This document shows positions 25,589-54,767 of a stretch of 56,591 bases of DNA, one piece after another (position 1 is the first letter of the stretch; every line of letters begins with the position of its first letter). The notes beneath the pieces are model-generated. The model searched no databases. It was not told where the DNA came from and was given only the letters and a program-made list of their open reading frames with translations. The translations under genes were made by a program, and so were the position numbers. The stretch comes from an uncultured Mycoplasmatota bacterium (lineage in GTDB: Bacteria; Bacillota_I; Bacilli_A; RF39; UBA660), in contig CAOJZZ010000004.1 of assembly GCA_948466315.1 (NCBI GenBank), positions 1-56,591 on the forward strand, written 5' to 3'.

Positions 25589-27736
25589 TTGAAAAAGAAA
25601 AAGAAGAGAAATAATGTAAAATATTCTAAAGTAATTATCATATTTTCTCTTCTTTTATTTGGCATCATAATAGGAAGAGTTATCCAATTATCTACCTCTA
25701 GTGAAATAGATGGTGTTAACCTAAAGAAATTAGCTGCTAAAAGAACTACTAAAACTGAAACACTACCAGCTCAAAGAGGTAGTATTTACTCATCTAATGG
25801 TGATATCCTTGCTCAAAATGTTTCATCTTATAAATTAATAGCCTATCTAGATCCTAAAAGAACAACTAAAAAGAATAAACCTCAGCATGTAGTTGATAAA
25901 GAAAAAACAGCAGAATCTCTTTCGCCAATACTAGGGATGGAAAAAGATGAAGTTTTAAAATACTTAAACAAAGAAAATGTTTATCAGACTGAATTTGGTA
26001 GCAAAGGCAAAGGACTTAATGAATTAACAAGAAAAAAGATTGAAGATTTAAACTTACCAGGACTAGATTTTATTGAAAGTTTTAGAAGATATTATCCTAA
26101 AGGAGATTTTGCTTCTTATACCATTGGTTATGCTAAAAGTAGTGAAGAAGATTCAAATGACTTAATTGTTGGAGAAATGGGAGTAGAAAAATATTATGAT
26201 AAAATTCTAAAAGGAGAAGATGGATATATAACTTATCAAAAGGACCTGAAAGGTTACAAAATTTCTGATACTAATGTTGTAAGACATGATGCTAGTCAAG
26301 GAAAAGATATTTATCTAACTATTGATAGTAATATCCAATTTTTTGTTGAACAAGCCCTAAATAATGCTGATATTGACTATGATTTTGAATGGTTTCATAT
26401 TACTATTGCTGATGCTAAAACAGCGGCTGTCTTAGCAACCGCTACTGCTCCATCTTTTGATCCTAATAAAAGAAATATGACTAACTATTTAGATCTTTTA
26501 GTTTCATCTCCATATGAACCAGGTTCAACTATGAAAACATTTACTTATATGGCTGCTATGGAAAACGGTGTTTATGATGGAAATGAAACATATAATTCTG
26601 GTGTTTACACCACCTCAGATGGAACCCAAATAGGTGATTGGGACAGGAATGGTTGGGGAACAATAACTTTTGACAAAGGTTATGCTATGAGTAGTAATGT
26701 TGGTATCATTAATTTAATAAATCGTCATATGTCAAGTATTATGTTAAGACAATACTTTAAAAAATTAGGTTTTGGTAAAAAAACTAGAATATCCCTTCCT
26801 AATGAAGCTACAGGTAGTCTAGACTTTAAATACGAAACTGAAATATTTAATGCTGGCTTTGGGCAAAGAGTAACAACCACTCCGATTCAAAATATTCAAG
26901 CGATGACACCTTTAACTAATGATGGTATGTTATTAAGACCTTATATTGTTGAAAAAATAGTAGATCCTGATACTAAAGAGATAATTCTTCAAAATAAAAA
27001 AGATGAACAAGAACGTGTAGCTTCAAGTGCAACCATTCAGAAAATGATTCAACTAATGGATGATTGTGTCAACGGACTTGGCAATACTGGAAGCAGGTAT
27101 CGTCTAGATAGTGGTGAATTAATAGGAAAAACAGGTACTGCTCAAATCGCTAATGAAAGTGGCGGAGGTTATTTGTCAGGAGAAGCTGATATCATTTCTT
27201 CTTTCGCTGGACTCTATCCAAAAAGTAACCCCCAAATAATCATTTATGCTTCTGTAAAAAGACCAACTGCTGGTAGTCAAAAACCAATAGCCAATGCCAT
27301 TAAAGAAATTGTTGAAAATATTTCAAAATACTATGGTAATCATGATATTAAAGAAAATGTAATACCAATTACTGACTATAAATTACCAAGTTTTACTAAT
27401 AAAAAATTAGACACAGTAAAAACTACTTTAGATGCTGATGGTATGAAATATCAAATTATTGGTTCAGGTAATAAAGTAATAAAACAATCTCCTACTAAAG
27501 ATACTACAATTACCAATAAAGATACCATTTATTTAATAACCAATGACCAAGAAATAACTATTCCTAATGTAGTAGGGCTATCATCAAAAGTAGCTAAAGA
27601 CTTATTGCAAAAACTAGATGTTAAAGTAAATCTAGACGGAGTAGGCTATGTAGTAGAACAATCAATTCCAGAAGGAACAAAAATCACACCAGGTTTAGAA
27701 ATAAAATTAAACTTATCTCCAAAATTTAGTGCCTAA
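25589..27736 (+). CDS. pbpB: Class B PBP (PBP2B/FtsI) with two PASTA domains
   Basis: EPGSTMK, SSN, KTGTAQ, PASTA repeats; follows ftsL. Confidence 0.92.
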   Translation: MKKKKKRNNVKYSKVIIIFSLLLFGIIIGRVIQLSTSSEIDGVNLKKLAAKRTTKTETLPAQRGSIYSSNGDILAQNVSSYKLIAYLDPKRTTKKNKPQHVVDKEKTAESLSPILGMEKDEVLKYLNKENVYQTEFGSKGKGLNELTRKKIEDLNLPGLDFIESFRRYYPKGDFASYTIGYAKSSEEDSNDLIVGEMGVEKYYDKILKGEDGYITYQKDLKGYKISDTNVVRHDASQGKDIYLTIDSNIQFFVEQALNNADIDYDFEWFHITIADAKTAAVLATATAPSFDPNKRNMTNYLDLLVSSPYEPGSTMKTFTYMAAMENGVYDGNETYNSGVYTTSDGTQIGDWDRNGWGTITFDKGYAMSSNVGIINLINRHMSSIMLRQYFKKLGFGKKTRISLPNEATGSLDFKYETEIFNAGFGQRVTTTPIQNIQAMTPLTNDGMLLRPYIVEKIVDPDTKEIILQNKKDEQERVASSATIQKMIQLMDDCVNGLGNTGSRYRLDSGELIGKTGTAQIANESGGGYLSGEADIISSFAGLYPKSNPQIIIYASVKRPTAGSQKPIANAIKEIVENISKYYGNHDIKENVIPITDYKLPSFTNKKLDTVKTTLDADGMKYQIIGSGNKVIKQSPTKDTTITNKDTIYLITNDQEITIPNVVGLSSKVAKDLLQKLDVKVNLDGVGYVVEQSIPEGTKITPGLEIKLNLSPKFSA

Positions 27737-38380: not shown

Positions 38381-38410
38381 GACATGTAAAGTCTTTTTTT
38401 TTCATATACT
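38381..38410 (+). promoter_or_regulatory. SigE-type mother-cell promoter of spoVD
   Basis: GACATGT-15 nt-CATATACT versus consensus about GtCATAt-15-CATAcanT; spoVD is SigE-controlled in B. subtilis. Confidence 0.6.
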
Positions 38411-38432
38411 CTAACTAGATAGAGGTGAAAAA

Positions 38433-39476
38433 ATGTTTTTTAAAAAGATTGATGAAAGAATAAAAGTATTATTTTTAATGATGTTATTATTGTTTGCTTT
38501 AGTTGTAGGAAGAGTTTTCTACATTCAAGTTATTGATTATAAAAAGCTAAATAAATATGCATCTAATTTGTGGAGTAGAGATTTACCAATAGAAGCTAAC
38601 AGAGGATTAATTAAGGACAGAAATGGAGTCGTTTTGGCCGATAACTTAACCACAACGAGTCTTGTATTAATTCCCAATCAAATAAAGAATAAAGATAAAA
38701 CAACTAAAGAATTAGCCGAAATATTAGGTGTAACTTATGATGAGATGAAAGAACATGTTTACAAAAAAGCATCAATTGAAAGAGTTCATCCTGAAGGAAG
38801 AAGATTATCTTATGATGTAGCAGAAAAAATATCAGCTTTGGAACTACCTGGTGTATATCTTGTAAAAGAAGCTAAGAGATATTATCCTTATGGTAATATG
38901 TTATCACATAGTCTAGGTTATGTTGGTATAGATAATCAAGGTCTATCAGGATTAGAATTAAAATATGATAAATATTTAACTGGAAAAAGTGGTGCTATTA
39001 AGTATTTTTCTGACGCCAAAGGTAATAAACTAAATTTATCAGAAATTTATGTTGAGCCTCAATCAGGTATGAATATAAATTTAACCATAGATATAAATAT
39101 CCAAAAATCCATAGAACGAGAACTAGATAATATTGTAGATATGTTCTCACCAGAAATGGCATTAGCTATTGTTATGAATCCCAAAACAGGGGAAATTTTA
39201 GGTATGGGTTCACGACCTGATTATGACCCTAATAAATATAAAGATTATTCTCAAGAAATACTAAGTCGTAACTTACCAATTTGGTCTTCTTATGAACCAG
39301 GTTCAACTTTCAAAGTAGTTACAATGGCTACAGCTGTAGAAGAGAAAGTAGTAGACTTAGAAAAGGATCATTTCTATGATGGGGGTAGTGTTAATGTAGA
39401 AGGTTCGGTATTAAAATGTTGGAAGGCAGGGGGGCATGGAGAACAAACATTTCTTCAGGTATTACAAAATTCTTGT
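38433..39476 (+). CDS. spoVD: SpoVD fragment 1 of 3 (codons 1-348: TM, PBP dimerisation domain, SxxK)
   Basis: RYYPYG...GYVGIDNQGLSGLE, YEPGSTFK, CWK.GGHG.QTFLQVLQNSC; similarity stops at the SCN motif. Confidence 0.92.
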
Positions 39477-39676
39477 AACCATGGGTTGTAGCAAAAGATA
39501 CTTTATTAATAGCAAAAAATCAATCATTATAACAATATTAAAGTATCTTGTTTTTATATTGGTAATTAGTTGATTTCATTAAGTAACATAAAATCATTAT
39601 ACTAATTTTAAAATGCTTTCTAAATTAATACTTAAGATATTATCACAGATTAATCATACAACAAACTATCAAAATA

Positions 39677-39832
39677 TTGACAAAATGAATTAATTATGAT
39701 ATAATATGCCCACATAATGAAAGTACAGCAAGCATATAATATAATTGATATGAAGGTGGTGTTTTTAAATTTTACAATAATTTAAAAAAATAACATTTTT
39801 ATCTTGCAAAATTTAAATTTATAGTGTATAAT
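39677..39832 (+). promoter_or_regulatory. Two SigA-type promoters for the element-1 cargo
   Basis: TTGACA-17-TATAAT with TG extension (39677-39705); TTGCAA-17-TATAAT (39804-39832). Confidence 0.7.
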
Positions 39833-39861
39833 ATGTACACAAAAAAGGGGGATATTTAATT

Positions 39862-42800
39862 ATGAAAAGAATAAAACTAGTTGTAGCAACTATGGTTTTA
39901 TTAGGCATAGTGTCTATAACAACAGGGGTAGGCTTACAATTAAAATTATCTAAGGAGAAAAATATAATCGAAACGACTCCTTATGGCTATTTAGCATATA
40001 ACACAGAAAAATATAGATATTTGTCTGATATAGAATATATAAAAGACAAAACATCTGTTGGTTGGGGAAATATTCTATTTGATAAGAATATTAATACTAA
40101 CATTAACAATGGATTAATAACAGTAAATATAGACGGTGAGAAAAAATCGTTTATGAAAGGGGTACTTGCTCATGCTACTTCTACAGTGGTTTATGATATA
40201 AGTTCCTATAATTATGATTACTTTACAGCATATCTAGGAGTAGATGCTAGTGCTGGGAATAACGGAAACGGGGTAAAATTCTTAATTTATACATCAAAGG
40301 ATGGTGAAAATTGGGATTTACAAACAGCTGCAAAACCACCAGTATTAAAAGGAACTAGTGAATCTATCTTTGTAAAAATAGATATCAAAGAGGCAAAATA
40401 CTTAAAATTATATGCACATAATAATGGTAATGATTCATCTGATCATGCAGTTTATGCAGATGCTAAATTAATCAAAGAAGATTATGTAGAAGATACTAGT
40501 AAAGTAGATTTTATAAAAACAGTAGCAGAATATGATGAAATAATTAAAAGTAAAAATATATCAGATCAATTAGCAACAAATGAATTAACAATTCTTCAAA
40601 GAGAATTTGTTAATAGTGTGGGGTATGATTTATTACAATCTTTTGTAAAATACAATGATGAAAATAAGGAAGCTATATCATGGTTAATGAATGATGTAGA
40701 AAACTTAAGATTATATATTGTTGGTGGAAAACCAGAGGGAAGTTATATAAACTCAATTAGAGTTTTAGCAGAATTACATAGTAAATATAAAGCAGATTTT
40801 GAAAATAAAGAAGTAACAAAGTATGGAACAGTATTAGGCGATTTATACAAGAAAATGGCTATTACACTATCTTTAACACACTCAAAACAAGTAGCTTTAT
40901 GGATGCAACCAAGTGCACCAGAGAATCAATCTAATGCAGTAGATCGTTATGCAATTTATAAAAAAATGCACAAAGATGGACATTTTGTAGCATCAGAAAG
41001 CTTAGATATTACTAAGTGGTTTGAAGAGTATAGTGTTGAAGAGATGAGATTTGTATTAAATAATATTATCGATGATGAAGAAATACTATGGTTAAATGAA
41101 TATACACAAAAACAAATGGATGCTCATCCAAAAGAAACATGGAAATATTTAACACCACACCCATATATGGCATATGTATGGCCAAACTATGCAAAAGAAG
41201 AATTTCATGATCCAGCAAGAAAGAATTACTGGGATGAGAAATTCGATGGAATATTCAGTAAATATAATGTAACATATAGAAAAGGATTATATAAAGTATG
41301 GATGAACTTTAGAAATGAGTTCGGAACAGGAGCTGTATGTGGTGGAATATCAAAAACAGGATCTAACATAAGAGCAGTACATGGTATACCAGCAGCTGTC
41401 ATTGGACAACCAGGACATGCAGCAATAGTTTACTATACAAAAGATGCCCAAGGAAGAGGATATTGGGGAATCGATAACGATGTAAGTGGATGGACCCAAT
41501 CAGAAAAAAGCGAAAGAATGCTATTAGGATGGGGAAATGCTTCTTATACTAAAGGATCTTATCAAGTTGTATATATGGCATTAGCTCAAGAAGTGCTAAA
41601 CGACTATTCAACATTCGAAAAAAGTAAGGAAATGGTTTTAGTAGGACAATCTTATAAAGGCGATTTAAGAAAACAAGAAGAAGCATATAGAAAAGCATTA
41701 GAAATTCAACCATTGAATATAGATGCTTGGTACGAGTTAATAAATGTATATAATGAAAGTGAAAATAAAACAGAAGAAGATTATTATAACTTAGCAAAAG
41801 AGTTAGCAGAAGAATTAAAATACTTCCCATTACCAATGTATCAATTAACAAACTTAATTAAACCAAAATTAACAAGTGTAGAAAGCTCTTATAAATTTAC
41901 ATTATTACAAACTAGAATTTTAAAAGAAGCAAGTGTAGTACCTAATAATACAACAGACAACTATTATGTATATCAACCATCAATAACAAGAACAGAGGCA
42001 AATTACTTATTAGGAATATTAGATAGCACAATAGCATCCTTCTCATTTGATGGTGAAGATGCAGGAAAAATTGTATTATCAAGCCGCTTTGATGGAAATG
42101 GAGTACGTTGGGACTATAGCCTAGATGGCAAGAATACATGGAAAGAAGTAGCGTTTACTGCTAATGAAGAACATAAATTAAAATTAACAGAAAAAGAACT
42201 TGAAAGTATAAGCGTAGATAATGATATTTATGTACATATAGTTGGAGTAAATTACAACGAAGAAAATCTTTATAAAATAGATATAAAAGAACAAAGCTTA
42301 CCATCAACTATTTATAATAATGATTTGGAAAATAAAGTAATTGGTGCAACTGATTATATGGAATGGAAAATGGTTAGTAATGTATCAACAGCAAAATCAA
42401 AAGCAAAAGCTAAATCAAGTAATGGTTGGACATCATTTAAAGATAGTAAACCAGACTTAACTGGAGATAAAACAGTATCTGTAAGATGTGGAAAACATGG
42501 TGTTTATTTAGAAAGTGAAGCTGTAACATTAGCTTACACAAAAGACGTAGTAGATGAAAAAAGAAAATATATTTCAATAGATCATCTATCAATTCACTCA
42601 GTATCTACTCAAGCAACTGCTCAAGGAAGACATGCCAAAAACGCAATCGACGGAAATATTTATACAAATTGGCATTCTGCTTGGAATGGAAGCGATAAAG
42701 AAAAATATATTGTAATTAAATTAGATGAAGTTAAAAAATTAACAGCTTTAGAATATCTTCCATTAGATGGTGGAAATGGAAAAATCAAAAATGCAGTTAT

Positions 42801-43842
42801 CTCAGTAAGTATGGATGGTGAAAACTGGAAAGAAGTAGTATCTAGTACAAATTGGGCTTATAATATGACAACTAAAAGCGTAGACTTTGAACCAACAGAA
42901 GCACAATATATTAAAATAGTAGGTAAAGAAACACAATCAGCATCAAGCTCAAACAGCTTTATAGCAGCTAAAATGTTTAACCTATATGAAGATGCTAGCA
43001 ATAAAGTAGAAAAACCAACTGCTGAAATAGCATACAGTACTAAAGAACAAACAAATCAAAATGTAACTGTTACTTTAGTAAATCCAAGTAAAAAAATAAC
43101 AATTACTAATAATGAAGGTAAAGATACATATACCTTTACAGAAAATGGCACATTTACTTTTGAATTTATTGATGAAGCTGGTAATAAAGGTAGTGCAACT
43201 GCAACAGTTGATTGGATAAAAAAAGATGATGATTCATCTAATAAACCAGGACAAGATGATGATAACAACAATGATAACAAACCAGGTCAGGACGATGATA
43301 ACAACAATGATAATAAACCAGGACAAGATGATGATAACAACAATGATAATAAACCAGGACAAGATGATAACAAACCAGGTCAGGATGACGATAACAACAA
43401 TGATAATAAACCAGGACAAGATGATAACAAACCAGGTCAGGACGACGATAACAACAATGATAATAAACCAGGACAAGATGATAACAAACCAGGTCAGGAC
43501 GATGATAACAACAATGATAACAAACCAGGTCAGGATGATGATAACAACAATGATAACAAACCAGGTCAGGATGATAATAATAATGTTAATAAACCTATAG
43601 TAGATGATAATGGTAATACCAATACACCAAATGATACTACTAATACAAACAAGCCAACTGTAGACAATAATACAAATGGTTTAACCTCAAACAAAAATAA
43701 TTCAATTAACACAGAGGTTCCAAATACTAGTGTAGATAATGATATTTATATATATGTATTTACTATTTTAATAATCCTTATCATCTTAAGTATTACTTAC
43801 TTTTATATAAGAAAAACTAATATTAAAAAAGTTGAAAAATAG
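39862..43842 (+). CDS. Large cell-surface protein: NPCBM/NEW2, putative Cys-His catalytic core, F5/8-C (CBM32), D/N-rich stalk, VPNTS + TM anchor
   Basis: RYLSD...GWG...KGVLAHA...DHAVYADAKL; GAVCGG...QPGHAA; NAIDGN..T.WHS; C-terminal sorting-like signal. Confidence 0.8.
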   Translation: MKRIKLVVATMVLLGIVSITTGVGLQLKLSKEKNIIETTPYGYLAYNTEKYRYLSDIEYIKDKTSVGWGNILFDKNINTNINNGLITVNIDGEKKSFMKGVLAHATSTVVYDISSYNYDYFTAYLGVDASAGNNGNGVKFLIYTSKDGENWDLQTAAKPPVLKGTSESIFVKIDIKEAKYLKLYAHNNGNDSSDHAVYADAKLIKEDYVEDTSKVDFIKTVAEYDEIIKSKNISDQLATNELTILQREFVNSVGYDLLQSFVKYNDENKEAISWLMNDVENLRLYIVGGKPEGSYINSIRVLAELHSKYKADFENKEVTKYGTVLGDLYKKMAITLSLTHSKQVALWMQPSAPENQSNAVDRYAIYKKMHKDGHFVASESLDITKWFEEYSVEEMRFVLNNIIDDEEILWLNEYTQKQMDAHPKETWKYLTPHPYMAYVWPNYAKEEFHDPARKNYWDEKFDGIFSKYNVTYRKGLYKVWMNFRNEFGTGAVCGGISKTGSNIRAVHGIPAAVIGQPGHAAIVYYTKDAQGRGYWGIDNDVSGWTQSEKSERMLLGWGNASYTKGSYQVVYMALAQEVLNDYSTFEKSKEMVLVGQSYKGDLRKQEEAYRKALEIQPLNIDAWYELINVYNESENKTEEDYYNLAKELAEELKYFPLPMYQLTNLIKPKLTSVESSYKFTLLQTRILKEASVVPNNTTDNYYVYQPSITRTEANYLLGILDSTIASFSFDGEDAGKIVLSSRFDGNGVRWDYSLDGKNTWKEVAFTANEEHKLKLTEKELESISVDNDIYVHIVGVNYNEENLYKIDIKEQSLPSTIYNNDLENKVIGATDYMEWKMVSNVSTAKSKAKAKSSNGWTSFKDSKPDLTGDKTVSVRCGKHGVYLESEAVTLAYTKDVVDEKRKYISIDHLSIHSVSTQATAQGRHAKNAIDGNIYTNWHSAWNGSDKEKYIVIKLDEVKKLTALEYLPLDGGNGKIKNAVISVSMDGENWKEVVSSTNWAYNMTTKSVDFEPTEAQYIKIVGKETQSASSSNSFIAAKMFNLYEDASNKVEKPTAEIAYSTKEQTNQNVTVTLVNPSKKITITNNEGKDTYTFTENGTFTFEFIDEAGNKGSATATVDWIKKDDDSSNKPGQDDDNNNDNKPGQDDDNNNDNKPGQDDDNNNDNKPGQDDNKPGQDDDNNNDNKPGQDDNKPGQDDDNNNDNKPGQDDNKPGQDDDNNNDNKPGQDDDNNNDNKPGQDDNNNVNKPIVDDNGNTNTPNDTTNTNKPTVDNNTNGLTSNKNNSINTEVPNTSVDNDIYIYVFTILIILIILSITYFYIRKTNIKKVEK
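43240..43575 (+). repeat. Coding tandem repeat: 11 NKPGQDD units as 36-bp and 21-bp variants
   Basis: Order long-long-long-short-long-short-long-short-long-long-partial. Confidence 0.95.
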
Positions 43843-43887
43843 AATCTATTAATACTATAATGATATTAACATAATTACTAATAAAAA

Positions 43888-43928
43888 TATATCTTACTAT
43901 TTCAATATTCGAATAGTAAGATATTTTT
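43888..43928 (+). terminator. Intrinsic terminator after cargo 1
   Basis: ATATCTTACTATT...AATAGTAAGATAT + T run. Confidence 0.75.
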
Positions 43929-44023
43929 AATTTATATAAAAAATACACATTTTAAAAGAATCTAAATATTAGGTTCTAATTTTTATTATAACTTAATAGT
44001 CTTAATCAAAGGAGGAACATATT

Positions 44024-44218
44024 TTGAATATAGTTGATAAATATCATAGCTTTACTGATTCAAAAGAATTGCCTAAAGACTATTTAATTTTAAAATTAAG
44101 AATGTATTTTAATAAAGAATTATATCAAAAAAGAATTATTTCTTTTGAAATCTATAATAACATGCAAAATCTATTAATAAAAAAAATGAATAAAATAATT
44201 ATGGATAATAGAGTATAA
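44024..44218 (+). CDS. Small protein upstream of recombinase 1 (candidate recombination directionality factor)
   Basis: SD AAAGGAGG, TTG start, 64 aa, SHOCT-like ELYQKRIISFEIY. Confidence 0.65.
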   Translation: MNIVDKYHSFTDSKELPKDYLILKLRMYFNKELYQKRIISFEIYNNMQNLLIKKMNKIIMDNRV

Positions 44219-44266
44219 ATAATTAAAATATATTTTTAATATTTTAATAAAAGGGGATGAGACTCA

Positions 44267-45901
44267 ATGGATATAATAAAAGCAAGAAAGGAATTATTAC
44301 TTGGAAAAACTATATATGATATGAACTTAAGAGTAGTTGATTACGGCAGGGTATCAACAGATAAAGATAATCAAGTAAATTCCCTTACTAATCAGATTAA
44401 CTATTTTAATGAAATGATCTCTAGTATCAAAAACTGGACTCATATAAGAAGTTATAGTGATGAAGGAATAAGTGGAACGAGAGTAGAAAAAAGAGAAGAA
44501 TTTTTAAGAATGATAGAAGATGCAAGACTTGGCAAAATTGATTTAATATTAACTAAAGAAGTATCTAGATTTGCTCGTAACACTATTGATAGTATTAGTT
44601 ATACTCAGACCTTATTAAAGTATGGTGTAATAGTCTTTTTTATCTCAGATAATATAAATACTCTTTACCCTGATAGTGAATTTAGACTAACTCTTATGGC
44701 GAGTATGGCTCAAGATGAAGTTAGAAAGTTATCAGAAAGAGTTAAGTTTGGTATTAAAAGAAGTATTAAAGATAGAAAGGTAGGCGGAGGGGGACTTTAT
44801 GGTTATATAAAAAAAGATTGTAAACTAATAATAAATGAGAAAGAAGCTCCTGCTGTTAGGATGCTATATTCCTTATATTCAAGTGGAGAATATGGTTTTA
44901 AGAAAATAGGAGAAGAACTAGCAAGTAATGGTTATTACACTAAAAAGGGCAAGATTTTTAGTGATACTACTCTAAAGAAAATGTTAAATAATCCAAGATA
45001 TAAAGGTTATTATACAGCTAATATGTCAGAAGTAGAAGATTATAAAACTCATAGAAAAGTAAAAAAGCCTAAAGACGAATGGATTATCGAAAAAGATAAA
45101 AAAGGAGATGTTCCCGCTATTGTCAGCGAAGAACTATGGGAAAAAGCTAATGAAATATATAAAGAAAAAAATAATAAATGGAATAAAAACGTTTTAAATA
45201 AGGAGTATTATTTAGAAAATAGAAATTATACTTCTAAAATATTTTGTATAGAACATAAAAAAACATTTATCAGAAGTGCCAGTGGTAAAAGAAAAAACAA
45301 TCCAGTATGGCAATGTGGTGAGTATTTAAGAAACGGAATAAAGGGTTGTGCTTCTCCACGTTTATTTGAAAAAGACTTAAATAATATTTTTTCTAAAATA
45401 ATAGAAAATATTATTGATAATAAAGAAACACTTTTGAATATGATAATAAACGATTATATTACTCTAATAAAAGATAATAATACAAATAATAAGCAGTATT
45501 ATTTAAAACAAAAACTACAAGAACAACAAATATATAAAGATAAATTATTCGATATGTTTTTAAAGGAATTAATAACAGATATTGAGTTCTTAGAAAGAAA
45601 TAATAAAATATCCTCAGAAATTTCCACTATTAAAAAAACTATAAATAAATTAGAAGCTAATCAAAATTCTTTAGAGTATTATGAAAAGGAAAAATCTAAA
45701 ATAAGCAAAGAAATCTTACTCTTATTAAATATAGAAGATAATATAGGAAAATATTTTAACTTATTTATTAATAAAGTTTTAGTTAGTAAGATAAATAATA
45801 ATAGAAAAAATATTAAATTAACCATAATATTTAATTATAAATACCCTAATAAAGATGTAGAATTTATATATAACAACAAAGATATCTTAATAACAAATTA
45901 A
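44267..45901 (+). CDS. Large serine recombinase 1 (SpoIVCA-like architecture)
   Basis: YGRVST, DEGISGT, KEVSRFARN, recombinase domain, C..H...C...C zinc ribbon, coiled coil. Confidence 0.96.
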   Translation: MDIIKARKELLLGKTIYDMNLRVVDYGRVSTDKDNQVNSLTNQINYFNEMISSIKNWTHIRSYSDEGISGTRVEKREEFLRMIEDARLGKIDLILTKEVSRFARNTIDSISYTQTLLKYGVIVFFISDNINTLYPDSEFRLTLMASMAQDEVRKLSERVKFGIKRSIKDRKVGGGGLYGYIKKDCKLIINEKEAPAVRMLYSLYSSGEYGFKKIGEELASNGYYTKKGKIFSDTTLKKMLNNPRYKGYYTANMSEVEDYKTHRKVKKPKDEWIIEKDKKGDVPAIVSEELWEKANEIYKEKNNKWNKNVLNKEYYLENRNYTSKIFCIEHKKTFIRSASGKRKNNPVWQCGEYLRNGIKGCASPRLFEKDLNNIFSKIIENIIDNKETLLNMIINDYITLIKDNNTNNKQYYLKQKLQEQQIYKDKLFDMFLKELITDIEFLERNNKISSEISTIKKTINKLEANQNSLEYYEKEKSKISKEILLLLNIEDNIGKYFNLFINKVLVSKINNNRKNIKLTIIFNYKYPNKDVEFIYNNKDILITN

Positions 45902-45948
45902 AAAACGATTATTTTTTAGCTAAAAGTATCTCTTGCTTTACTCAAAGA

Positions 45949-46146
45949 AACCCAGGGTTTGTAAAATTAGGACAATTACTTGGTAAAAAACGTTTATTCT
46001 CCTACTTAGATAAGTTTGGTTTTGGTTCTAAAACTGGAATAGATTTAAATGGAGAGGGTAAAGGTATTATTTTTAATCTTGATAAAGTAGGTAATGTCGA
46101 ACTATCTACTACTGCCTTTGGTCAAGGAGTAAGTGTAACTCCTATT
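45949..46146 (+). CDS. spoVD: SpoVD fragment 2 of 3 (66 codons, no start codon; not in ORF track)
   Basis: Manual translation NPGFVKLGQLLGKKRLFSYLDKFGFGSKTGIDLNGEGKGIIFNLDKVGNVELSTTAFGQGVSVTPI. Confidence 0.93.
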
Positions 46147-46277
46147 CATCTTACTGTCTATTAAATGATACCTTTGCTCTAACGAAAGGAATAACTAGTA
46201 AATATACAAAGAAATTATAAATATATTTGGCAAGAGAATTAATTTTATAGTGTATAATTTTGTATTATTTAGGGATT

Positions 46278-46321
46278 AAATAGCAAAAACGTTTGCTATT
46301 TTTGTAATTATGTTGTATAAT
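46278..46321 (+). promoter_or_regulatory. SigA-type promoter of cargo 2 with a palindrome over the -35
   Basis: TTGCTA-17-TATAAT; AAATAGCAAA-AACG-TTTGCTATTT. Confidence 0.55.
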
Positions 46322-46347
46322 AATACCCACTTAATGAGGGGGATAGA

Positions 46348-48033
46348 ATGAAAAAGAAATTATTAGAGAAAGCAAGATCGATTATATTCTTAGGAGGACT
46401 AAGTACCTTATGTATTACAACTAGCTTATCTTCACTTTCTAAGTCACAATATAAAATAGTAAAAGAATCAAAAATAGGTACAGTATTAGAAAAAGAACCA
46501 GTACTAGCTAACTATTTTACAACTGGTGAATGGTTATCAGAAGATGCCCTACTAAGAATAAATCAAATCTGTAATATACCAGTAGCACCAGTAACAACAC
46601 CATATGATCCAAGGTATTTAGATATTTTAGGTATTAATAAAGAAAATACTAAAAAAACTTATGAAAGTTTACAAACTATTAAAGCAAATAGAAAACATCG
46701 TAATACTAAATATTATGATGAAGAAAAAGATGATATTAAATGGGAATTATTAGCTGAAGATTGTTATACAAGAAGTGTTAATTATAAAGAACCAGACAAT
46801 AATGGTATAATATTAGACCAACCATTTTCAAAAGAAGAAATAAAAGAAAAAATAGCTAATATAAAACAACTTACTCAAAATCTATGTAAAGATTTTAAAG
46901 AATTCGATATAAAGGAATTTGCCTGTACCTTAGCAGATTATAAATTCATCAAAAAATTAGACTATGTTAGTACAGCTTTAGCTTATACAACTAATGATAC
47001 TGTTACATATAATACTTTATTTACACATAGCTTGACAAAAGATGAAATAAAACCTATAGATTTGCATGAGAATTTTCATATTGCAGTAAATGGATGTAGT
47101 GATAAAAATACTGGTTTATCATCTAAAAAAAGGGGTATTAGTGTTCAAAATAAAGATGATAAAAACGTTAGTAATGATAATTTACTATGTATAGATAACT
47201 CTTCTTATAATTATAATAACAGTTATAGTTATAATTTTTTAGAAGAAATATATGCAGAGCTTTATAGTAATAGTGTTTTAAAAACAAAACAACAAAACTA
47301 TATAAATCATGATGAAATACTAAATGCTCTTCAAATAAGTTTAGGATTAAGGTCAAATTACCAAATAGATGATATTTTACAAGATTTAGTCTACCATGAC
47401 CCATTATCATTTATTAAACGTTTCCCAAGCTTTGGAGAAAGAAAGGAAGACTATGTTGTTGATAATTGTAAAATGTTAAAAGCTTATGATATCTTATTAA
47501 GTGATAAGTCACTATATAGTCAACTTCTAGAAAATTCTGATCTATCAGATATTTATAACTATGATAGTGTTAATAGTCTAGCCTTATTTGCTAGTAGTCA
47601 ATTAACTAAAAACTATTTTAATAATTTAATTGTTATGAACGAAATGCATTCAAAAGATATGGAACTAGAAGATAATTATTATATGATAAACTTATTTGAG
47701 AATACCTTAAAAAATACTTTAAAAGCTATTAAAGAAGTTAATCCAAAGTTATCAATAAGAATTAATGATACAGCATTTTATCAAACTAGAACTACTTTTT
47801 TAGGTTATTTAAGTGATAAATATAAACTTTTTCCAAAAGATGTTGAAAGTAAATACTATAGAGAATATAGTTATACAGTTCCACCAAAAGATTACCAGGG
47901 ACCATCATTTTTCGATGACAATAAAAGGTTATATTACATGACTTTATTAAAAGAAGGAGAAAATCACAATATTAAAGCACCATACAATCTACCAATAGGA
48001 ACTTCATATAAAGTCCACAAAAAAACAAAATAA
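46348..48033 (+). CDS. Secreted hypothetical protein, possible zinc metallopeptidase
   Basis: Signal-like N-terminus; HENFH (HExxH) with downstream EEIYAE. Confidence 0.6.
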   Translation: MKKKLLEKARSIIFLGGLSTLCITTSLSSLSKSQYKIVKESKIGTVLEKEPVLANYFTTGEWLSEDALLRINQICNIPVAPVTTPYDPRYLDILGINKENTKKTYESLQTIKANRKHRNTKYYDEEKDDIKWELLAEDCYTRSVNYKEPDNNGIILDQPFSKEEIKEKIANIKQLTQNLCKDFKEFDIKEFACTLADYKFIKKLDYVSTALAYTTNDTVTYNTLFTHSLTKDEIKPIDLHENFHIAVNGCSDKNTGLSSKKRGISVQNKDDKNVSNDNLLCIDNSSYNYNNSYSYNFLEEIYAELYSNSVLKTKQQNYINHDEILNALQISLGLRSNYQIDDILQDLVYHDPLSFIKRFPSFGERKEDYVVDNCKMLKAYDILLSDKSLYSQLLENSDLSDIYNYDSVNSLALFASSQLTKNYFNNLIVMNEMHSKDMELEDNYYMINLFENTLKNTLKAIKEVNPKLSIRINDTAFYQTRTTFLGYLSDKYKLFPKDVESKYYREYSYTVPPKDYQGPSFFDDNKRLYYMTLLKEGENHNIKAPYNLPIGTSYKVHKKTK

Positions 48034-48069
48034 ATTAATATGAAAAGTAATTCAGCTTATTTATATTAG

Positions 48070-48137
48070 ACTGCCTTCAAAATTTTTCGACTTTGAAGGC
48101 AGTATGAGAACTAGTAAAAGACTAGTTCTTTTTTTTG
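48070..48137 (+). terminator. Two tandem hairpins/terminator after cargo 2
   Basis: ACTGCCTTCAAA...TTTGAAGGCAGT, then AGAACTAGT-AAAAG-ACTAGTTCT + T run. Confidence 0.8.
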
Positions 48138-48253
48138 TATTCTGATAATAAACTAAAAAGAAGGGATTAATTATATAACTAAAATTACTAATAGAAAGAA
48201 ATAATTAAAATAATTTATCATATTTATAATATTGATTATAAAAGGGGAATAAT

Positions 48254-48412
48254 ATGGATTTAATAAACAAAATATCATCACGAATTATTGAATTAGAATT
48301 ACAGATAAAACTTCTAGATTATTTAAAAAGAACAGAAGAAATAGAAAGTGATATGTATGATTATCTAGTAAATAAATTACTTATAAAAATAAATCAAGAA
48401 AAGAAAAGTTAA
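48254..48412 (+). CDS. Small protein upstream of recombinase 2 (52 aa; candidate directionality factor; not in ORF track)
   Basis: SD AAAGGGG; MDLINKISSRIIELELQIKLLDYLKRTEEIESDMYDYLVNKLLIKINQEKKS. Confidence 0.65.
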   Translation: MDLINKISSRIIELELQIKLLDYLKRTEEIESDMYDYLVNKLLIKINQEKKS

Positions 48413-48450
48413 TATAGTATAAATATTTACTAAATTAGGAGGCTGATATT

Positions 48451-50079
48451 ATAGATTTATATACAGTAAGAAATAATATCCTAAAAGGAAAATCTATTCA
48501 AGAGTTAAATTTACGAGTATGCTTTTATGCTAGAGTATCAACAGAAAAAGATGAACAACTTCACTCATTAACTGCTCAAATATCTTTTTTTAAAGATTAT
48601 ATAAAAAAAATTCCTAACTGGAAATACATTGATGCCTATATAGATGAGGGAATTAGCGGAACTAGAGTAAAAAAACGTGATGCTTTTTTAAAAATGATAA
48701 ATGATGCTAAAAACAATAAATTTGATTTAATTCTTACTAAAGAAATTTCAAGGTTTTCAAGAAATACTCTAGATAGTATTAAATATACTCAAGAGTTATT
48801 AGAAAATGGAGTAGGTGTTTATTTTTTAAATGATAATATTAATACAATATTACCAGACTCTGAATTAAGATTAACTATAATGGCTAGTGTTGCCCAAGAT
48901 GAGGTTAGAAAGCTATCAGAAAGGGTTTCCTTTGGTATGAGACGCAGTATAGAAAATGGTGTTGTATTAGGCTCTTCTAATATTTATGGTTTTACTAAAG
49001 AACATGGCAAATTAATAATAGATCAAAAAGAATCTCTTATGATTAAACTAATTTTTGATAAATATGCTAATACAAATGATGGCTTATCAAAAATATCAAA
49101 AGATTTATATCTTCTCGGTTATAAAAGTAAAACAGGTAAAAGAATAGATCCAACTATATTAACAAGAATTATCAAAAACCCTAAGTACAAAGGATATTAC
49201 TGTGGTAATAAAAGTAAAATAATTGACTATCGTAACAAAAAAAAGAAAAGTCTTGACCAATCAGAATGGATAATTTATAAAGATCAAAAAAATATTCCCG
49301 CTATTATTAGTGAAGAATTATGGGAAAAGGCTAATGAAAAATTATTAAAAAGACAAAAAAGTATTAAAAACAAAGTACAAGATAAAGCAATCTTTCAAAA
49401 TAGATATACTTATTCTGGAAAATTATATTGCCATAATCATCAATTAACTTATCACAGAAATGGTGCTGGTAAAAGAAAAGAAAATCCAGTTTGGGAATGC
49501 CAAGTATATCGTAAAGAAGGATTAAAAAGTTGTAATAGCCCAAGAATATATGAAAAGGAATTAGATAAAATTTTTTATTATATATTTTCAAAAATTCTAA
49601 AAAGTAATCAAAAAATAACAGAAGATTTATTAACTGAGTGTCAAACTTATTTAAAAAATCAAAATAGTATGACAAAAATAAAAGAATTAAAAACAAAACT
49701 AGAAGAACTTGAATTAAAAAAGAAAAAATTATTAGAATTACTAATAGATGATATCATAGAAAAAAAAGAATATCAGAGCCAAATTGTTTTATTGAAAAAG
49801 AAATCAGATGAGTATAATAGAAAAATAAAAGAAATAAAAAACATTTCAAATAATAAGCATACCATTAGAAAAAAGATCACCAACCTACAAAATAGTTTTA
49901 AAAATTGTCTTCAAGATAAAGAATGTTTTAAATCATTTTTTACTGAAATAGTTGACTATATTATAGTTTGTCAAAAAGATAGTATTAATAAAAAACAATC
50001 AATTTTAAAAATAGTTCTTAAAACTGGTAATAATTTAATAGTAACCAGTAATAATTTAGGTAAGGAGTATCATTTTTGA
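48451..50079 (+). CDS. Large serine recombinase 2 (542 aa from an ATA start)
   Basis: Frame is open 81 codons upstream of the track ORF and includes catalytic YARVST and DEGISGT; SD AGGAGG 8 nt before ATA; clear paralog of recombinase 1. Confidence 0.93.
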   Translation: MDLYTVRNNILKGKSIQELNLRVCFYARVSTEKDEQLHSLTAQISFFKDYIKKIPNWKYIDAYIDEGISGTRVKKRDAFLKMINDAKNNKFDLILTKEISRFSRNTLDSIKYTQELLENGVGVYFLNDNINTILPDSELRLTIMASVAQDEVRKLSERVSFGMRRSIENGVVLGSSNIYGFTKEHGKLIIDQKESLMIKLIFDKYANTNDGLSKISKDLYLLGYKSKTGKRIDPTILTRIIKNPKYKGYYCGNKSKIIDYRNKKKKSLDQSEWIIYKDQKNIPAIISEELWEKANEKLLKRQKSIKNKVQDKAIFQNRYTYSGKLYCHNHQLTYHRNGAGKRKENPVWECQVYRKEGLKSCNSPRIYEKELDKIFYYIFSKILKSNQKITEDLLTECQTYLKNQNSMTKIKELKTKLEELELKKKKLLELLIDDIIEKKEYQSQIVLLKKKSDEYNRKIKEIKNISNNKHTIRKKITNLQNSFKNCLQDKECFKSFFTEIVDYIIVCQKDSINKKQSILKIVLKTGNNLIVTSNNLGKEYHF

Positions 50080-50089
50080 GACTACTATA

Positions 50090-50752
50090 CAGCAAGTAAC
50101 AGCTGTTTCTGCAGTAGTTAATGGTGGTTATCTATATGAGCCATATATTGTAAAAAGTATTTCAGAAAATGAAACAAATACTATTATTAAGGAAAATAAT
50201 AAAAATTTAGTTCGTAAAGTAATCAGTAGTGACACCTCAAGGATTATGCGACACGCTCTAGAAAGTGTCGTGGCTAAAGGGGGAGGAAAATCAGCCTATA
50301 TTGAAGGATATCGAATTGGTGGTAAAACAGGAACAGCCCAAAAGGTAAAAGATGGCAGATATTTAGTTGGAAATTATATTATGTCCTTTATGGCTGTAGT
50401 ACCATCAAATGATCCAGAAGCAGTATTGTACTTAGCTATAGATAATCCTAAAAATACAGCCCTTTTATCTAGTTATACAACAACTCCGATTGCTAGAAGA
50501 ATCCTTCTAGATATAATAGATGCTTTAGGAATTGAAAAACAAGAAAATGCCATGCCTAAAGACTTAGAATGGACGGATAAAGTAACTTATGAAGTTCCAA
50601 ATGTAGTAGGAAAATCAGTTGATGAAGCTAAGAAATTATTATCAAACTTTACTATTGAATACTCAGGAACAGGAGAAACTGTTGTAGAACAATCACCTAA
50701 GGCTAAAGAAAAACTAGAAGATCAAGGAACTGTAAGGCTATTATTAGAATAA
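50090..50752 (+). CDS. spoVD: SpoVD fragment 3 of 3 (220 aa; KTG motif + PASTA)
   Basis: QQVTAVSAVVNGGYLYEPYIVK... in frame with track ORF 50246; GYRIGGKTGTAQKVKDG. Confidence 0.93.
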   Translation, partial: QQVTAVSAVVNGGYLYEPYIVKSISENETNTIIKENNKNLVRKVISSDTSRIMRHALESVVAKGGGKSAYIEGYRIGGKTGTAQKVKDGRYLVGNYIMSFMAVVPSNDPEAVLYLAIDNPKNTALLSSYTTTPIARRILLDIIDALGIEKQENAMPKDLEWTDKVTYEVPNVVGKSVDEAKKLLSNFTIEYSGTGETVVEQSPKAKEKLEDQGTVRLLLE

Positions 50753-52719: not shown

Positions 52720-53709
52720 GTGAAAAACATGCTATTATTAACCAAAGCCGTTTTTGCAGTAATGATTGGTTTCTTATCAGCGACCGTTTTAGGTTTGTTT
52801 TTAATACCAATATTAAAGAAAATGCGTGTTGGACAGAAAATAAGCATCTTTGTAGGAGAGTCACATCGTAAAAAAGAGGGTACTCCCACCATGGGAGGTT
52901 TAATTTTTATATTACCAACAGTTATTACAACAATAGCCCTGATATTTATGGGTAAAATTCCTTATACCTCAAACTTAGGTATTGTCTTATTGGTCTTTAT
53001 TGGTTATGCCTGTATCGGTTTTTTAGATGATTTTTTATCAATTCATAAAGGAAATAATGAAGGTCTAACGACTTATCAAAAACTATTTATGCAAGTTTTA
53101 ATTGCTATCGGTTTTTTCTATATTTATATGAAAAGTGGTGGTCAAACCTCATGGGTAGTTGGTACACTACATATTGATATAGAATTAAGTTGGCTCTATG
53201 GCTTATGTATTTTATTTATTTTAGTAGGTGCTAGTAATGCAGTAAATTTAACTGATGGAGAAGATGGTTTAGCTGGGGGGTTATCTGCTATTGCTTTTAT
53301 TGCCTTTAGTTTGATATCTCTAACTGTAGGCTTCGAAGATATTGGTATCTTTGGTCTAATATTAGTAGGTAGCTTAATGGGTTTCTTAATTTACAATACT
53401 CATCCTGCTAAAGTATTTATGGGAGATACAGGTTCTCTTGCCTTAGGTGCTGTTATGGGGGCTATTGCTATCTTGACTCATAGAGAGTTAACTTTATTAG
53501 TAGTCGCTGGTATCTTTGTAATAGAAACCTTAAGTGTTATTATTCAAACGTTTTGGGTTCAAGTATTTAAACGAAAATTGTTTTTAATGACACCACTTCA
53601 TCATCATTTCGAAAAATTAGGTTGGATAGAAACTGATATAGTAAAATTATTTTGGGTATGCGGTCTGATATTAGCAATGGCTGGAATTATCTTTGGCGTT
53701 TGGTTATAA
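52720..53709 (+). CDS. mraY: Phospho-N-acetylmuramoyl-pentapeptide transferase
   Basis: K.GTPTMGG, GFLDD, NLTDG.DGL, VFMGDTGSL, PLHHHFE. Confidence 0.97.
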   Translation: MKNMLLLTKAVFAVMIGFLSATVLGLFLIPILKKMRVGQKISIFVGESHRKKEGTPTMGGLIFILPTVITTIALIFMGKIPYTSNLGIVLLVFIGYACIGFLDDFLSIHKGNNEGLTTYQKLFMQVLIAIGFFYIYMKSGGQTSWVVGTLHIDIELSWLYGLCILFILVGASNAVNLTDGEDGLAGGLSAIAFIAFSLISLTVGFEDIGIFGLILVGSLMGFLIYNTHPAKVFMGDTGSLALGAVMGAIAILTHRELTLLVVAGIFVIETLSVIIQTFWVQVFKRKLFLMTPLHHHFEKLGWIETDIVKLFWVCGLILAMAGIIFGVWL

Positions 53710-53771: not shown

Positions 53772-54767
53772 ATGAGTAAAAAGATGGATAAATTATTGTT
53801 TATAGCAGTCATTATATTATCACTATTTGGTCTAGTAATGATTTACTCAGCATCCAGTATTTGGGCTGAATATAAATTTAATGATAGTTTTCATTACCTA
53901 AAATATCAAGGGGCTTTTTTAGTTATCGGAATAATGATTTTACTATTGTTTTCAAAAATAAACTATGAAGTTTATCATAATAAATCAAACACTTTACTAC
54001 TAAGTTGTATTATTCTTTTGGTATTAGTATTAATACCTGGAATTGGTAGTGTAAGAAATGGTAGTAGGTCTTGGTTTGGAATCGGTCCTTTAGGTATTCA
54101 ACCCAGCGAATTTGCGAAATTAGCAGCCATCATTTTTGCTAGTAAATATTTATCTAATAGTAATAAATTTTTAAAAAGCTACAAAGAAGGCGTATTTCCT
54201 ATTTTAGGTATTACATTACTTTTATTTGGTTTAATCATGCTACAACCAGATTTAGGAACAGGAGTAATCCTAGTAATGTCTATTGTATCTTTACTATTTA
54301 TAGCAGGTGTAAATATGAAATTTTTCTTTGAAGTAGGCTTTTTAGGAGTAATAGGAATAGTGATTTTAATTATTATTGCTCCATATCGTATGGATAGAAT
54401 TACTTCTTTTATTGATCCGTGGAGTGATGCCTTAGGTACAGGCTTTCAAATTATTCAAAGTCTTTATGCCATTGGACCAGGAGGATTATTAGGTAATGGT
54501 TTTCAAAAATCAATTCAAAAACACTTTTATTTACCAGAACCACAAACAGATTTTATTTTTTCTATTATAGCCGAAGAATTTGGTGTAGTAGGAGCATTTA
54601 TTGTTGTAGGCCTTTTTTCAATAATACTTTGGCGTGGTATTAAAATAGCCTTAAATACCAAAGATGCCTTTGCTAAATATTTATCTTTTGGTATGATTTT
54701 TCAAATGATTTTTCAAACTCTCATGAATTTAATGGTTGTTATTGGAATGATACCAGTAACAGGGTAA
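53772..54767 (+). CDS. spoVE: SpoVE (SEDS) 5' fragment, cut at PVTG; lacks the LPF.SYGGSS C-terminus
   Basis: MIYSASSIWAEYKFNDSF, QPSEFAK, GFQIIQSLYAIGPGG, YLPEPQTDFIF; TAA directly after IPVTG. Confidence 0.88.
   Translation: MSKKMDKLLFIAVIILSLFGLVMIYSASSIWAEYKFNDSFHYLKYQGAFLVIGIMILLLFSKINYEVYHNKSNTLLLSCIILLVLVLIPGIGSVRNGSRSWFGIGPLGIQPSEFAKLAAIIFASKYLSNSNKFLKSYKEGVFPILGITLLLFGLIMLQPDLGTGVILVMSIVSLLFIAGVNMKFFFEVGFLGVIGIVILIIIAPYRMDRITSFIDPWSDALGTGFQIIQSLYAIGPGGLLGNGFQKSIQKHFYLPEPQTDFIFSIIAEEFGVVGAFIVVGLFSIILWRGIKIALNTKDAFAKYLSFGMIFQMIFQTLMNLMVVIGMIPVTG

Follow-up and report, generated by a model that had tools for sequence, protein, structure and literature searches.

A spoVD gene in three pieces, split by two tandem serine recombinase elements in an uncultured Mycoplasmatota bacterium

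Organization of the spoVD locus

The stretch of DNA analyzed here (the window, 56,591 nucleotides) is the entire contig CAOJZZ010000004.1 of G000, a metagenome-assembled genome of an uncultured Mycoplasmatota bacterium (1.5 Mb in 79 contigs, 71% complete, 3.5% contamination). Within it, the sporulation gene spoVD lies in three pieces that are separated by two intervening elements (Table 1). Other G-numbers used below denote the genomes compared with G000, and X-numbers denote sequencing runs. An original prediction, made from the letters of the window, had proposed that the three pieces join into one stop-free class B penicillin-binding protein (PBP), with the SxxK motif in piece 1, the Asn codon of the SxN motif at junction 1, and the KTG motif in piece 3. 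All of these placements were confirmed by the sequence. Piece 1 encodes the N-terminal membrane anchor, the PBP dimerization domain, and the first part of the transpeptidase domain, including STFK (SxxK); it ends in ...QNSC, directly 5′ of the SxN Asn codon. Junction 1 falls at this Asn codon of S-C-N, which is the first codon of piece 2. Piece 3 carries the remaining transpeptidase domain, including KTG, and a PASTA domain. The class B PBP signature is complete (STFK, a junction-split SCN, KTG, and C-terminal PASTA), with mraY and spoVE nearby.

None of the three pieces contains a stop on translation. The Pfam Transpeptidase profile is shared out among them in matches that abut exactly (profile positions 2 to 103, 104 to 165, and 166 to 298), with PBP_dimer before the Transpeptidase part and PASTA after it. 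The matches to TIGR02214, the NCBIfam spoVD equivalog, also abut exactly, and neither join loses or repeats residues. The curated TIGR02214 cut-off of 688 bits refers to a full-length match, and the G000 pieces were scored separately; the intact orthologue in G343, with ~86% identity to piece 1, scored 714.7 bits against that cut-off. The rebuilt in-frame joins aligned without gaps to intact orthologues. Of the putative SigE-type promoter that the original prediction placed before the gene, only a CATA box was recognized, ~20 to 30 nt 5′ of the spoVD start and present in 7/7 orthologues inspected; in Bacillus subtilis, spoVD is sigma-E dependent. No second spoVD-like gene was found in the 71% complete G000 assembly, where the only other close class B PBP (positions 25589 to 27736, 3′ of mraZ and rsmH) had a PBP2X-like family as its best match (390.6 bits).

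TABLE 1 Features of the interrupted spoVD locus (positions in the window)
Feature	Position	Strand	Description
spoVD piece 1	38433..39476	+	348 aa; TIGR02214 positions 4-345, 358.6 bits
Intervening element 1	39477..45948	+	6472 bp, 27.1% GC
Common core of element 1	39477-39480, repeated at 45949-52		AACC
Terminal inverted repeats of element 1	39490-39504 vs 45923-45937		14/15 bases match
Cargo surface protein, 1326 aa	39862..43842	+	NPCBM and F5/8 type C domains (Pfam)
64-aa open reading frame (ORF), candidate recombination directionality factor (RDF) of element 1	44024..44218	+	TTG start
LSR1, 544-aa large serine recombinase (LSR)	44267..45901	+	ATG start; stop codon 47 nt 5′ of piece 2
spoVD piece 2 (middle "DNA exon")	45949..46146	+	66 aa, 198 bp; TIGR02214 positions 346-411, 93.2 bits
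Intervening element 2	46147..50089	+	3943 bp, 23.9% GC
Common core of element 2	46147-48, repeated at 50090-91		CA only (2 nt)
Terminal inverted repeats of element 2	46156-46171 vs 50067-50082		13/16 bases match
Cargo ORF, 561 aa	46348..48033	+	N-terminal hydrophobic segment; without Pfam or NCBIfam match
52-aa ORF, candidate RDF of element 2	48254..48412	+	aligns with the 64-aa ORF family
LSR2, 542 aa if started at ATA 48451	48451..50079	+	stop codon 10 nt 5′ of piece 3
spoVD piece 3	50090..50752	+	220 aa plus stop; TIGR02214 positions 412-633, 218.2 bits

The sizes of the two inserts and the presence of terminal inverted repeats agreed with the original prediction; the repeats of both elements are imperfect and lie 8 to 14 nt inside each end. 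Every gene in both inserts has the same direction as spoVD, and both inserts end in a small conserved ORF followed by an LSR gene that adjoins the downstream spoVD piece. Both LSRs have Resolvase, Recombinase, and Zn_ribbon_recom domains (Pfam). The features by which gene-intervening elements are recognized are found here, namely, a position in the coding sequence of a sporulation gene, short common cores, and joins that restore the reading frame.

The 1326-aa cargo protein of element 1 contains a tract of NKPGQDD repeats and, at the C terminus, a hydrophobic anchor; in the C-terminal part of its gene, at about 43230 to 43600, the tract is long and reads NKPGQDD(NNNDN). A sigma-70-like promoter match of 12/12 lies 5′ of this gene at 39677 to 39705, a perfect TTGACA-17-TATAAT with an upstream TG. 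A terminator-like hairpin follows the 561-aa ORF of element 2 at 48106 to 48130. No phage domains were detected in the inserts with Pfam (PHROGs were not searched). A prophage or prophage remnant was considered and rejected, as the only Pfam domains among the cargo and small ORFs were NPCBM and F5/8 type C in the 1326-aa ORF, with no match for the 561-, 64-, and 52-aa ORFs.

The arrangement in metagenomic runs

Of the sampled words of positions 38433 to 48400, 76 to 97% were present in 19 runs of 11 studies, mostly labeled mouse gut; no RNA run was found. In run X14, which may be the source sample, a 2341-nt contig spans junction 1L and a 10013-nt contig spans 1R, 2L, and 2R. Contigs of 1520 and 9160 nt span the same four junctions with 1 to 3 differences in run X3, which belongs to another study and is independent of X14. 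Mis-assembly, which the original prediction had named as a threat to its reading, was rejected because the contigs of these two runs span every junction. An assembly or binning artefact, in which spoVD fragments would be chimerically joined to mobile elements, is extremely improbable: G000 is a metagenome assembly with the fragmentation, incompleteness, and contamination given above, but independent contigs of two studies bridge all four junctions with 0 to 3 differences, and the same junctions are found at the same nucleotides in dozens of other genomes. A raw-read run without the organism (X20) yielded 16 placed reads, 15 of them placed only partly.

A contig of run X6 joins position 46146 to 50090, skipping 3943 bases, with 2 letters common to both sides and a depth of 9.8. 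The occupied form of site 2 is also present in X6, on a contig across 2R at a depth of 10.1. The joint is exactly the predicted attB2; an empty form of site 2 exists in nature, and the boundaries assigned to element 2 are right.

Three other observations were made in the run contigs. The X6 contig that carries 11 synonymous single-nucleotide polymorphisms (SNPs) in piece 1 stops at 39480, the last base of the AACC core, which hints at an assembly-graph branch at site 1, though no empty-site-1 joint was found there. "Go-back" joints from 50545 to 38534 with a TGA between them were seen in X14 and X6 (depths of 16.5 and 5.4) and may be chance short matches. Several short-sided joints also fell within the elements.

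Interrupted spoVD genes in related genomes

A survey of spoVD for zero, one, or two inserts, as suggested in the original prediction, covered 401 genomes of the same family, 324 of which had a piece-1 match at E ≤ 1e-80. The counts of states rest on the best 150 of 326 piece-1 matches; besides G000, all 33 rows with open frames of <600 aa were retrieved and mapped. Among the 150 rows listed, 116 had an open frame of at least 634 aa, 30 were interrupted, and 4 were limited by contig ends. Among the interrupted rows, site 1 (after ...NSC, core AAYC) was the sole site occupied in 16, site 2 (after ...TPI, core CA) in 9, and site 3 (inside STF|K) in 1 (G108). One row (G403, also with an LSR) had an insert at site 4 in the C-terminal part, two rows (G323 and G171) had inserts at sites 3 and 1, and G000 itself had them at sites 1 and 2. 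Counted over the same rows, site 1 is filled in 18 other genomes and site 2 in 9 others; in one of the latter, G416, just 13 nt of the element end are visible. Three genomes beyond these rows also have an interrupted spoVD: G006 at site 1, G012 at site 2, and G015 at a fifth site, which lies in GQGV.

The reading of spoVD as split by two elements stands in its structure, intact pieces, and in-frame joins, but the double interruption is not unique to G000. In G323 and G171, spoVD is likewise in three pieces, with a middle piece of ~57 codons. All of the spoVD pieces and both LSRs are on one contig (C11) in G323, and a contig end cuts the second element in G171 (contig C6).

Across genomes, the inserts end at the same nucleotide, and their arm motifs are specific to each family. 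The smallest complete insert is 2.8 kb (G008) and the largest is 39.6 kb (G012). The latter, at site 2 (G012:C3:712-40343), is a conjugative element with genes for a TraG/VirD4-type coupling protein, a VirB4-like ATPase, and a 2182-aa SNF2/ArdC protein; its LSR falls in the same clade as LSR2 of G000. A T2SSE ATPase, a pilin-like protein, and a reverse transcriptase are also encoded in this element.

In the LSR tree, the site-2 and site-3 clades each had 100/100 support, site-1 enzymes, including LSR1, were grouped at 88/97, and a site-2′ enzyme was sister to site 2 (92/91). Since the LSRs cluster by target site, each site has its own integrase lineage. Each element is inserted by its own LSR lineage at a highly conserved codon block; element 1 uses the SxN Asn codon, and element 2 uses TPI|Q.

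Some loci showed further variation. At 8/79 loci, the piece-1 match stops at residues 296 to 300, as at site 3. In G010, two LSR genes (530 and 517 aa) lie 3′ of piece 1 on contig C5 with cargo that includes an aminotransferase, a cytidylyltransferase/oxidoreductase, and a 1249-aa surface protein, and a third LSR lies 5′ of pieces 2 and 3 on another contig (C4); site 1 of this genome may hold tandem or nested elements. In the site-1 element of G102 (G102:C7:9640-15363), the small ORF and LSR adjoin the left junction and run in the opposite direction to spoVD; in another 12 cases, complete or with a right end, the LSR is at the right end and has the same direction as spoVD. The sole cargo of the 3-kb fifth-site element of G015 (contig C4) is a RhuM-family protein (343.8 bits).

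Selection on the spoVD pieces

In the 68 pieces (15058 codons) of the interrupted genomes, one stop was found, in the overlap zone at the site-4 junction of G403. When the G000 pieces were compared with three intact orthologues, the ratio of nonsynonymous to synonymous substitution rates (dN/dS) was 0.06 to 0.11, against 0.05 to 0.14 in intact-to-intact controls, at dS values of 0.9 to 1.7; because dS is near saturation, these ratios mainly reflect old divergence and are blind to a recent loss of constraint. The dN/dS comparison that the original prediction had put forward thus gave low values like those of the controls, from which the time since insertion is not readable. Strain-level variation in runs X3 and X6 is more informative: 12/12 SNPs in the pieces were synonymous third-position changes, 11 in piece 1 and 1 in piece 3. 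In the elements, synonymous changes made up 8/10 SNPs in the cargo ORF, 2/3 in LSR1, and 2/3 in the 561-aa ORF. The spoVD fragments are intact and under purifying selection.

Recombinases and candidate directionality factors

Each insert had been predicted to carry its own large serine recombinase. The domains are present in both, and the catalytic residues of LSR1 (R28-V29-S30-T31) are invariant among 16 aligned LSRs, but LSR2 is without an ATG, GTG, or TTG start. All three codons are absent before its catalytic serine, and the first ATG (48694) comes after it. The frame is open from 48439, immediately 3′ of a TAG stop, and reads GAG GCT GAT ATT ATA GAT. Candidate starts are the ATA at 48451 to 48453, which aligns with the start codons of relatives, and the ATT one codon 5′ of it (48448). 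At the codon aligned with this ATA, LSRs at site 2 in other genomes have ATG (G078), GTG (G394 and G100), or TTG (G012). An AGGAGG at 48437 to 48442, overlapping the TAG, lies 5 to 8 nt 5′ of the ATT and ATA.

Loss of the LSR2 start could have locked element 2 in place, leaving spoVD permanently broken and decaying, with sporulation lost or the cortex made by another PBP. The ATA where relatives have ATG, GTG, GTG, and TTG, together with the TAG stop close upstream and the identity of this ATA in runs X14, X3, and X6, would fit such a history. We nevertheless regard it as improbable, given that the remaining 541 codons of LSR2 are open, that the protein keeps all 73 columns invariant over 16 LSRs (including the catalytic R-V-S-T), that AGGAGG lies 5 to 8 nt upstream of the candidate starts, and that weak start codons already occur in 3/4 relatives. 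The exclusively synonymous variation of the spoVD pieces between strains and the precise empty site 2 in X6 also argue against a locked element.

The small ORFs upstream of the LSRs recur with them. Homologues of the 64-aa ORF adjoin the site-1 LSRs in G102, G010, and G006, and homologues of the 52-aa ORF lie directly upstream of the site-2 LSRs in G078, G394, and G100; in some site-2 relatives, the stop codon of the small ORF abuts the ribosome-binding site of the LSR. The 64-aa and 52-aa ORF families align with each other. A complex of LSR1 residues 150 to 544 with the 64-aa protein was modeled from custom alignments of 16 and 8 rows. Its score was 0.79, compared with 0.00 for the best of three controls; the mark set for this score was reached by 58/80 solved complexes and 2/110 mismatched pairs. 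Because the structure of the SPbeta integrase with its RDF has been solved, part of the 0.79 score may reflect likeness to that complex. Contacts agreed at ≥89% between runs of the model, and the predicted local distance difference test score (pLDDT) of the partner was ≥75. The modeled 64-aa protein would contact LSR1 at residues 382 to 404 and 478 to 526, at the base of the coiled coil. According to the cited part of one report, known RDFs bind the junction of the coiled-coil base and DBD2 (PMC12286644). Both small ORFs are candidate RDFs, with predicted binding to LSR1 modeled for the 64-aa ORF only.

Excision of the elements and alternative explanations

The sporulation-specific gene spoVD is split by two unrelated non-phage elements, and both are probably excised to rebuild it, most likely in the mother cell. 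About one in five related species has its spoVD interrupted at these same places, and reassembly by excision during sporulation is therefore probable. In the proposed mechanism, LSR1 and the 64-aa protein would recombine attL1 with attR1, and LSR2 and the 52-aa protein would recombine attL2 with attR2, each reaction releasing a circle and restoring the reading frame. The 634-aa SpoVD would be encoded only by a chromosome from which both elements have left. The mother cell, which differentiates terminally, would be the place of excision, and both elements would stay in the spore; the location in the mother cell is suggested as most likely by analogy with skin/sigK, SPbeta/spsM, and gin/gerE. 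Serine recombinases make a 2-bp staggered cut, and so the different cores (within AACC for element 1 and CA for element 2) and different arm repeats should prevent recombination of attL1 with attR2, a cross-reaction that would delete the 198-bp middle piece. The functional reading is partly supported, being strengthened by the recurring sites, the synonymous strain variation, the empty site 2, and the modeled RDF candidate.

Several observations weigh against this explanation. No sigma-E or sigma-K box was recognized 5′ of the small ORFs or LSRs on reading the sequence; only a terminator hairpin and an AT-rich stretch were noted 5′ of the small ORFs. A sigma-70-like match of 11/12 lies 5′ of the 64-aa ORF at 43832 to 43861, and promoter-like matches in the sigma-70 scan were not above those in shuffles (85 compared with 91.9 expected). 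The LSR2 start is restricted to ATA or ATT, and the near saturation of dS limits what the divergence data can say. The empty site 2 in X6 is one short contig, with a shorter side of 28 letters, and it could derive from a co-resident strain in which element 2 was lost or was never present. Of the excised forms expected in the original prediction, this joint was found, but neither an empty site 1 nor circle junctions were seen in the four runs examined. Spo0A (Spo0A_C) was not found in the 71% complete G000 and was present in 12/12 family relatives searched. Another spoVD may sit in the missing part of G000.

The main alternative is ordinary integrative or mobilizable elements that are parked in spoVD only because it offers conserved catalytic-motif codons in a gene dispensable for growth. 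Excision would then follow chance or accompany transfer, without developmental control. Carriers would be poor sporulators or would form spores only once the elements happened to be lost, and the fragments would be kept intact by frequent gain and loss. The 39.6-kb conjugative element of G012, with a site-2-type LSR at site 2, is consistent with this explanation, as are the co-occurrence of occupied and empty site 2 in X6, the adaptive-looking surface-protein cargo with its perfect sigma-70-like promoter, and the failure to recognize a sporulation-type promoter on reading the sequence. We consider parked elements rather unlikely, however, since inserts are found in 30/150 listed species-level rows with fragments essentially without decay, 12/12 strain-level SNPs in the pieces are synonymous, and the module of RDF-like ORF plus LSR is kept even in 3-kb elements without transfer genes. 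Furthermore, in the cited sections of three reports, all tested elements described in sporulation genes excise during sporulation (PMC4191935, PMC5595907, PMC5025042).

If excision does rebuild spoVD, a broader role for the gene can be put forward tentatively. In this reduced-genome gut lineage, spoVD might serve as a soma-only landing pad, in which stacked elements make cortex synthesis a multi-key AND gate. At least five distinct att sites would lie on the best-conserved codon blocks of the gene (SxxK, SxN, GQGV, TPI|Q, and a C-terminal site), each with its own LSR clade and all with a shared family of small RDFs; an LSR clade for each site and a shared RDF family would allow elements to be stacked. 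Cortex synthesis would fire only once all resident elements had left the mother-cell chromosome. The elements, from minimal 3-kb modules to a 40-kb conjugative element, would launch from the doomed mother cell and ride the spore as germline.

Host sporulation genes and gene neighborhood

G000 encodes SpoIVA (365 bits) and uninterrupted sigK-like and sigE-like genes that scored 281 bits (cut-off of 298.65) and 307 bits (cut-off of 348.6), respectively. Downstream of spoVD are mraY (52720 to 53709) and then spoVE (53772 to 54767). The division and cell wall cluster to which they belong is drawn out over 23863 to 54767, with mraZ, rsmH, and the PBP2X-like PBP at 23.8 to 27.7 kb, spoVD at 38.4 kb, mraY and spoVE at 52.7 to 54.8 kb, and several ORFs without a family match between them. 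Six more serine-recombinase-like matches, with 27 to 40% identity to LSR1, occur on contigs C32, C38, C2, C59, and C52 of G000; it is possible that other genes of this genome are interrupted as well.

A survey of the order RF39 predicts spore formation and, in the part cited here, lists spoVD among the genes with "reduced presence or complete absence" (PMC10868615). If the genomes studied here belong to RF39, split genes may contribute to this apparent scarcity of spoVD. In this gut lineage, which is known from metagenomes alone, interruption of spoVD is common (30/150 listed species rows).

Comparison with known systems

Developmentally excised elements are known in sigK, spsM, spoVFB, spoVR, gerE, and yabG. 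In the literature searched, no natural spoVD-intervening element was found, though tables of earlier surveys might list other targets; nor was there a doubly interrupted sporulation gene or a multiple interruption of one gene in endospore formers. Within that literature, the locus is the first sign in endospore formers of several elements stacked in one gene, and it adds a cortex-synthesis enzyme as a target. The cited part of a laboratory study reports ICEBs1 inserted in B. subtilis spoVD as a secondary site, from which it excised at less than 1e-4; this is not a natural element (PMC3715440).

Among known recombinases, the SCCmec Ccr recombinases and XisF were the best NCBIfam matches of LSR1 and LSR2 and share their domain architecture; the scores (89 to 128 bits, against cut-offs of 375 to 900) indicate distant relatives, not members. 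The target sites, the site-specific LSR clades, and the compact candidate RDFs possibly represent orthogonal integrase/RDF pairs with defined att sites.

Excision in the mother cell has been described for skin, SPbeta, vfbin, gin, and yin in the sections cited of four reports (PMC5025042, PMC4191935, PMC5595907, PMC10747680). For skin in sigK, the recombinase is SpoIVCA in B. subtilis and CD1231, with the RDF CD1234, in Clostridioides difficile (PMC5025042, in part); for SPbeta in spsM, the pair is SprA/SprB (PMC4191935 and PMC5499854, in part). The G000 elements resemble both in their LSR-plus-RDF logic and in having the recombinase gene at one element end. Retention in the germline (spore) and excision in the mother cell, which hold for skin and SPbeta, would apply to G000 by analogy only. 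In contrast to the elements described here, skin and SPbeta are single prophages or remnants of 14 to 134 kb in regulatory or coat-polysaccharide genes, whereas the G000 inserts have no phage genes (Pfam) and interrupt the gene of a cortex transpeptidase, with up to two insertions among at least five alternative sites.

Multiple interruptions of one gene are known from heterocyst-forming cyanobacteria. In the portions of the two reports cited, 10/87 interrupted heterocyst genes have multiple elements, with four in nifD of Rivularia (PMC4874684), and nifBHDK of Calothrix NIES-4101 is in 13 parts (PMC11249958). The likeness to spoVD extends to several elements per gene, a terminally differentiating cell, and a separate recombinase for each element, with serine recombinases common; the differences are another phylum and another developmental programme.

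The nearest individual parallel is gin, which interrupts gerE in Bacillus cereus ATCC 10987. It is one element of 28.6 kb that carries three recombinase genes, and it is experimentally verified, according to the part of the report cited (PMC5595907). Like the elements in G000, gin is non-phage, lies in a sporulation gene, and has an LSR (GirC) and a small accessory factor (GirX), and its excision rebuilds the reading frame. The G000 locus, by comparison, holds two small elements of 6.5 and 3.9 kb, the target is spoVD, and the host is an uncultured member of the gut Bacilli known from sequence alone. The principle of gene-intervening elements in sporulation genes is not new; what is new is spoVD as the target, a multi-site hotspot on catalytic-motif codons, the stacking of elements, minimal modules of RDF plus LSR, and the host lineage.

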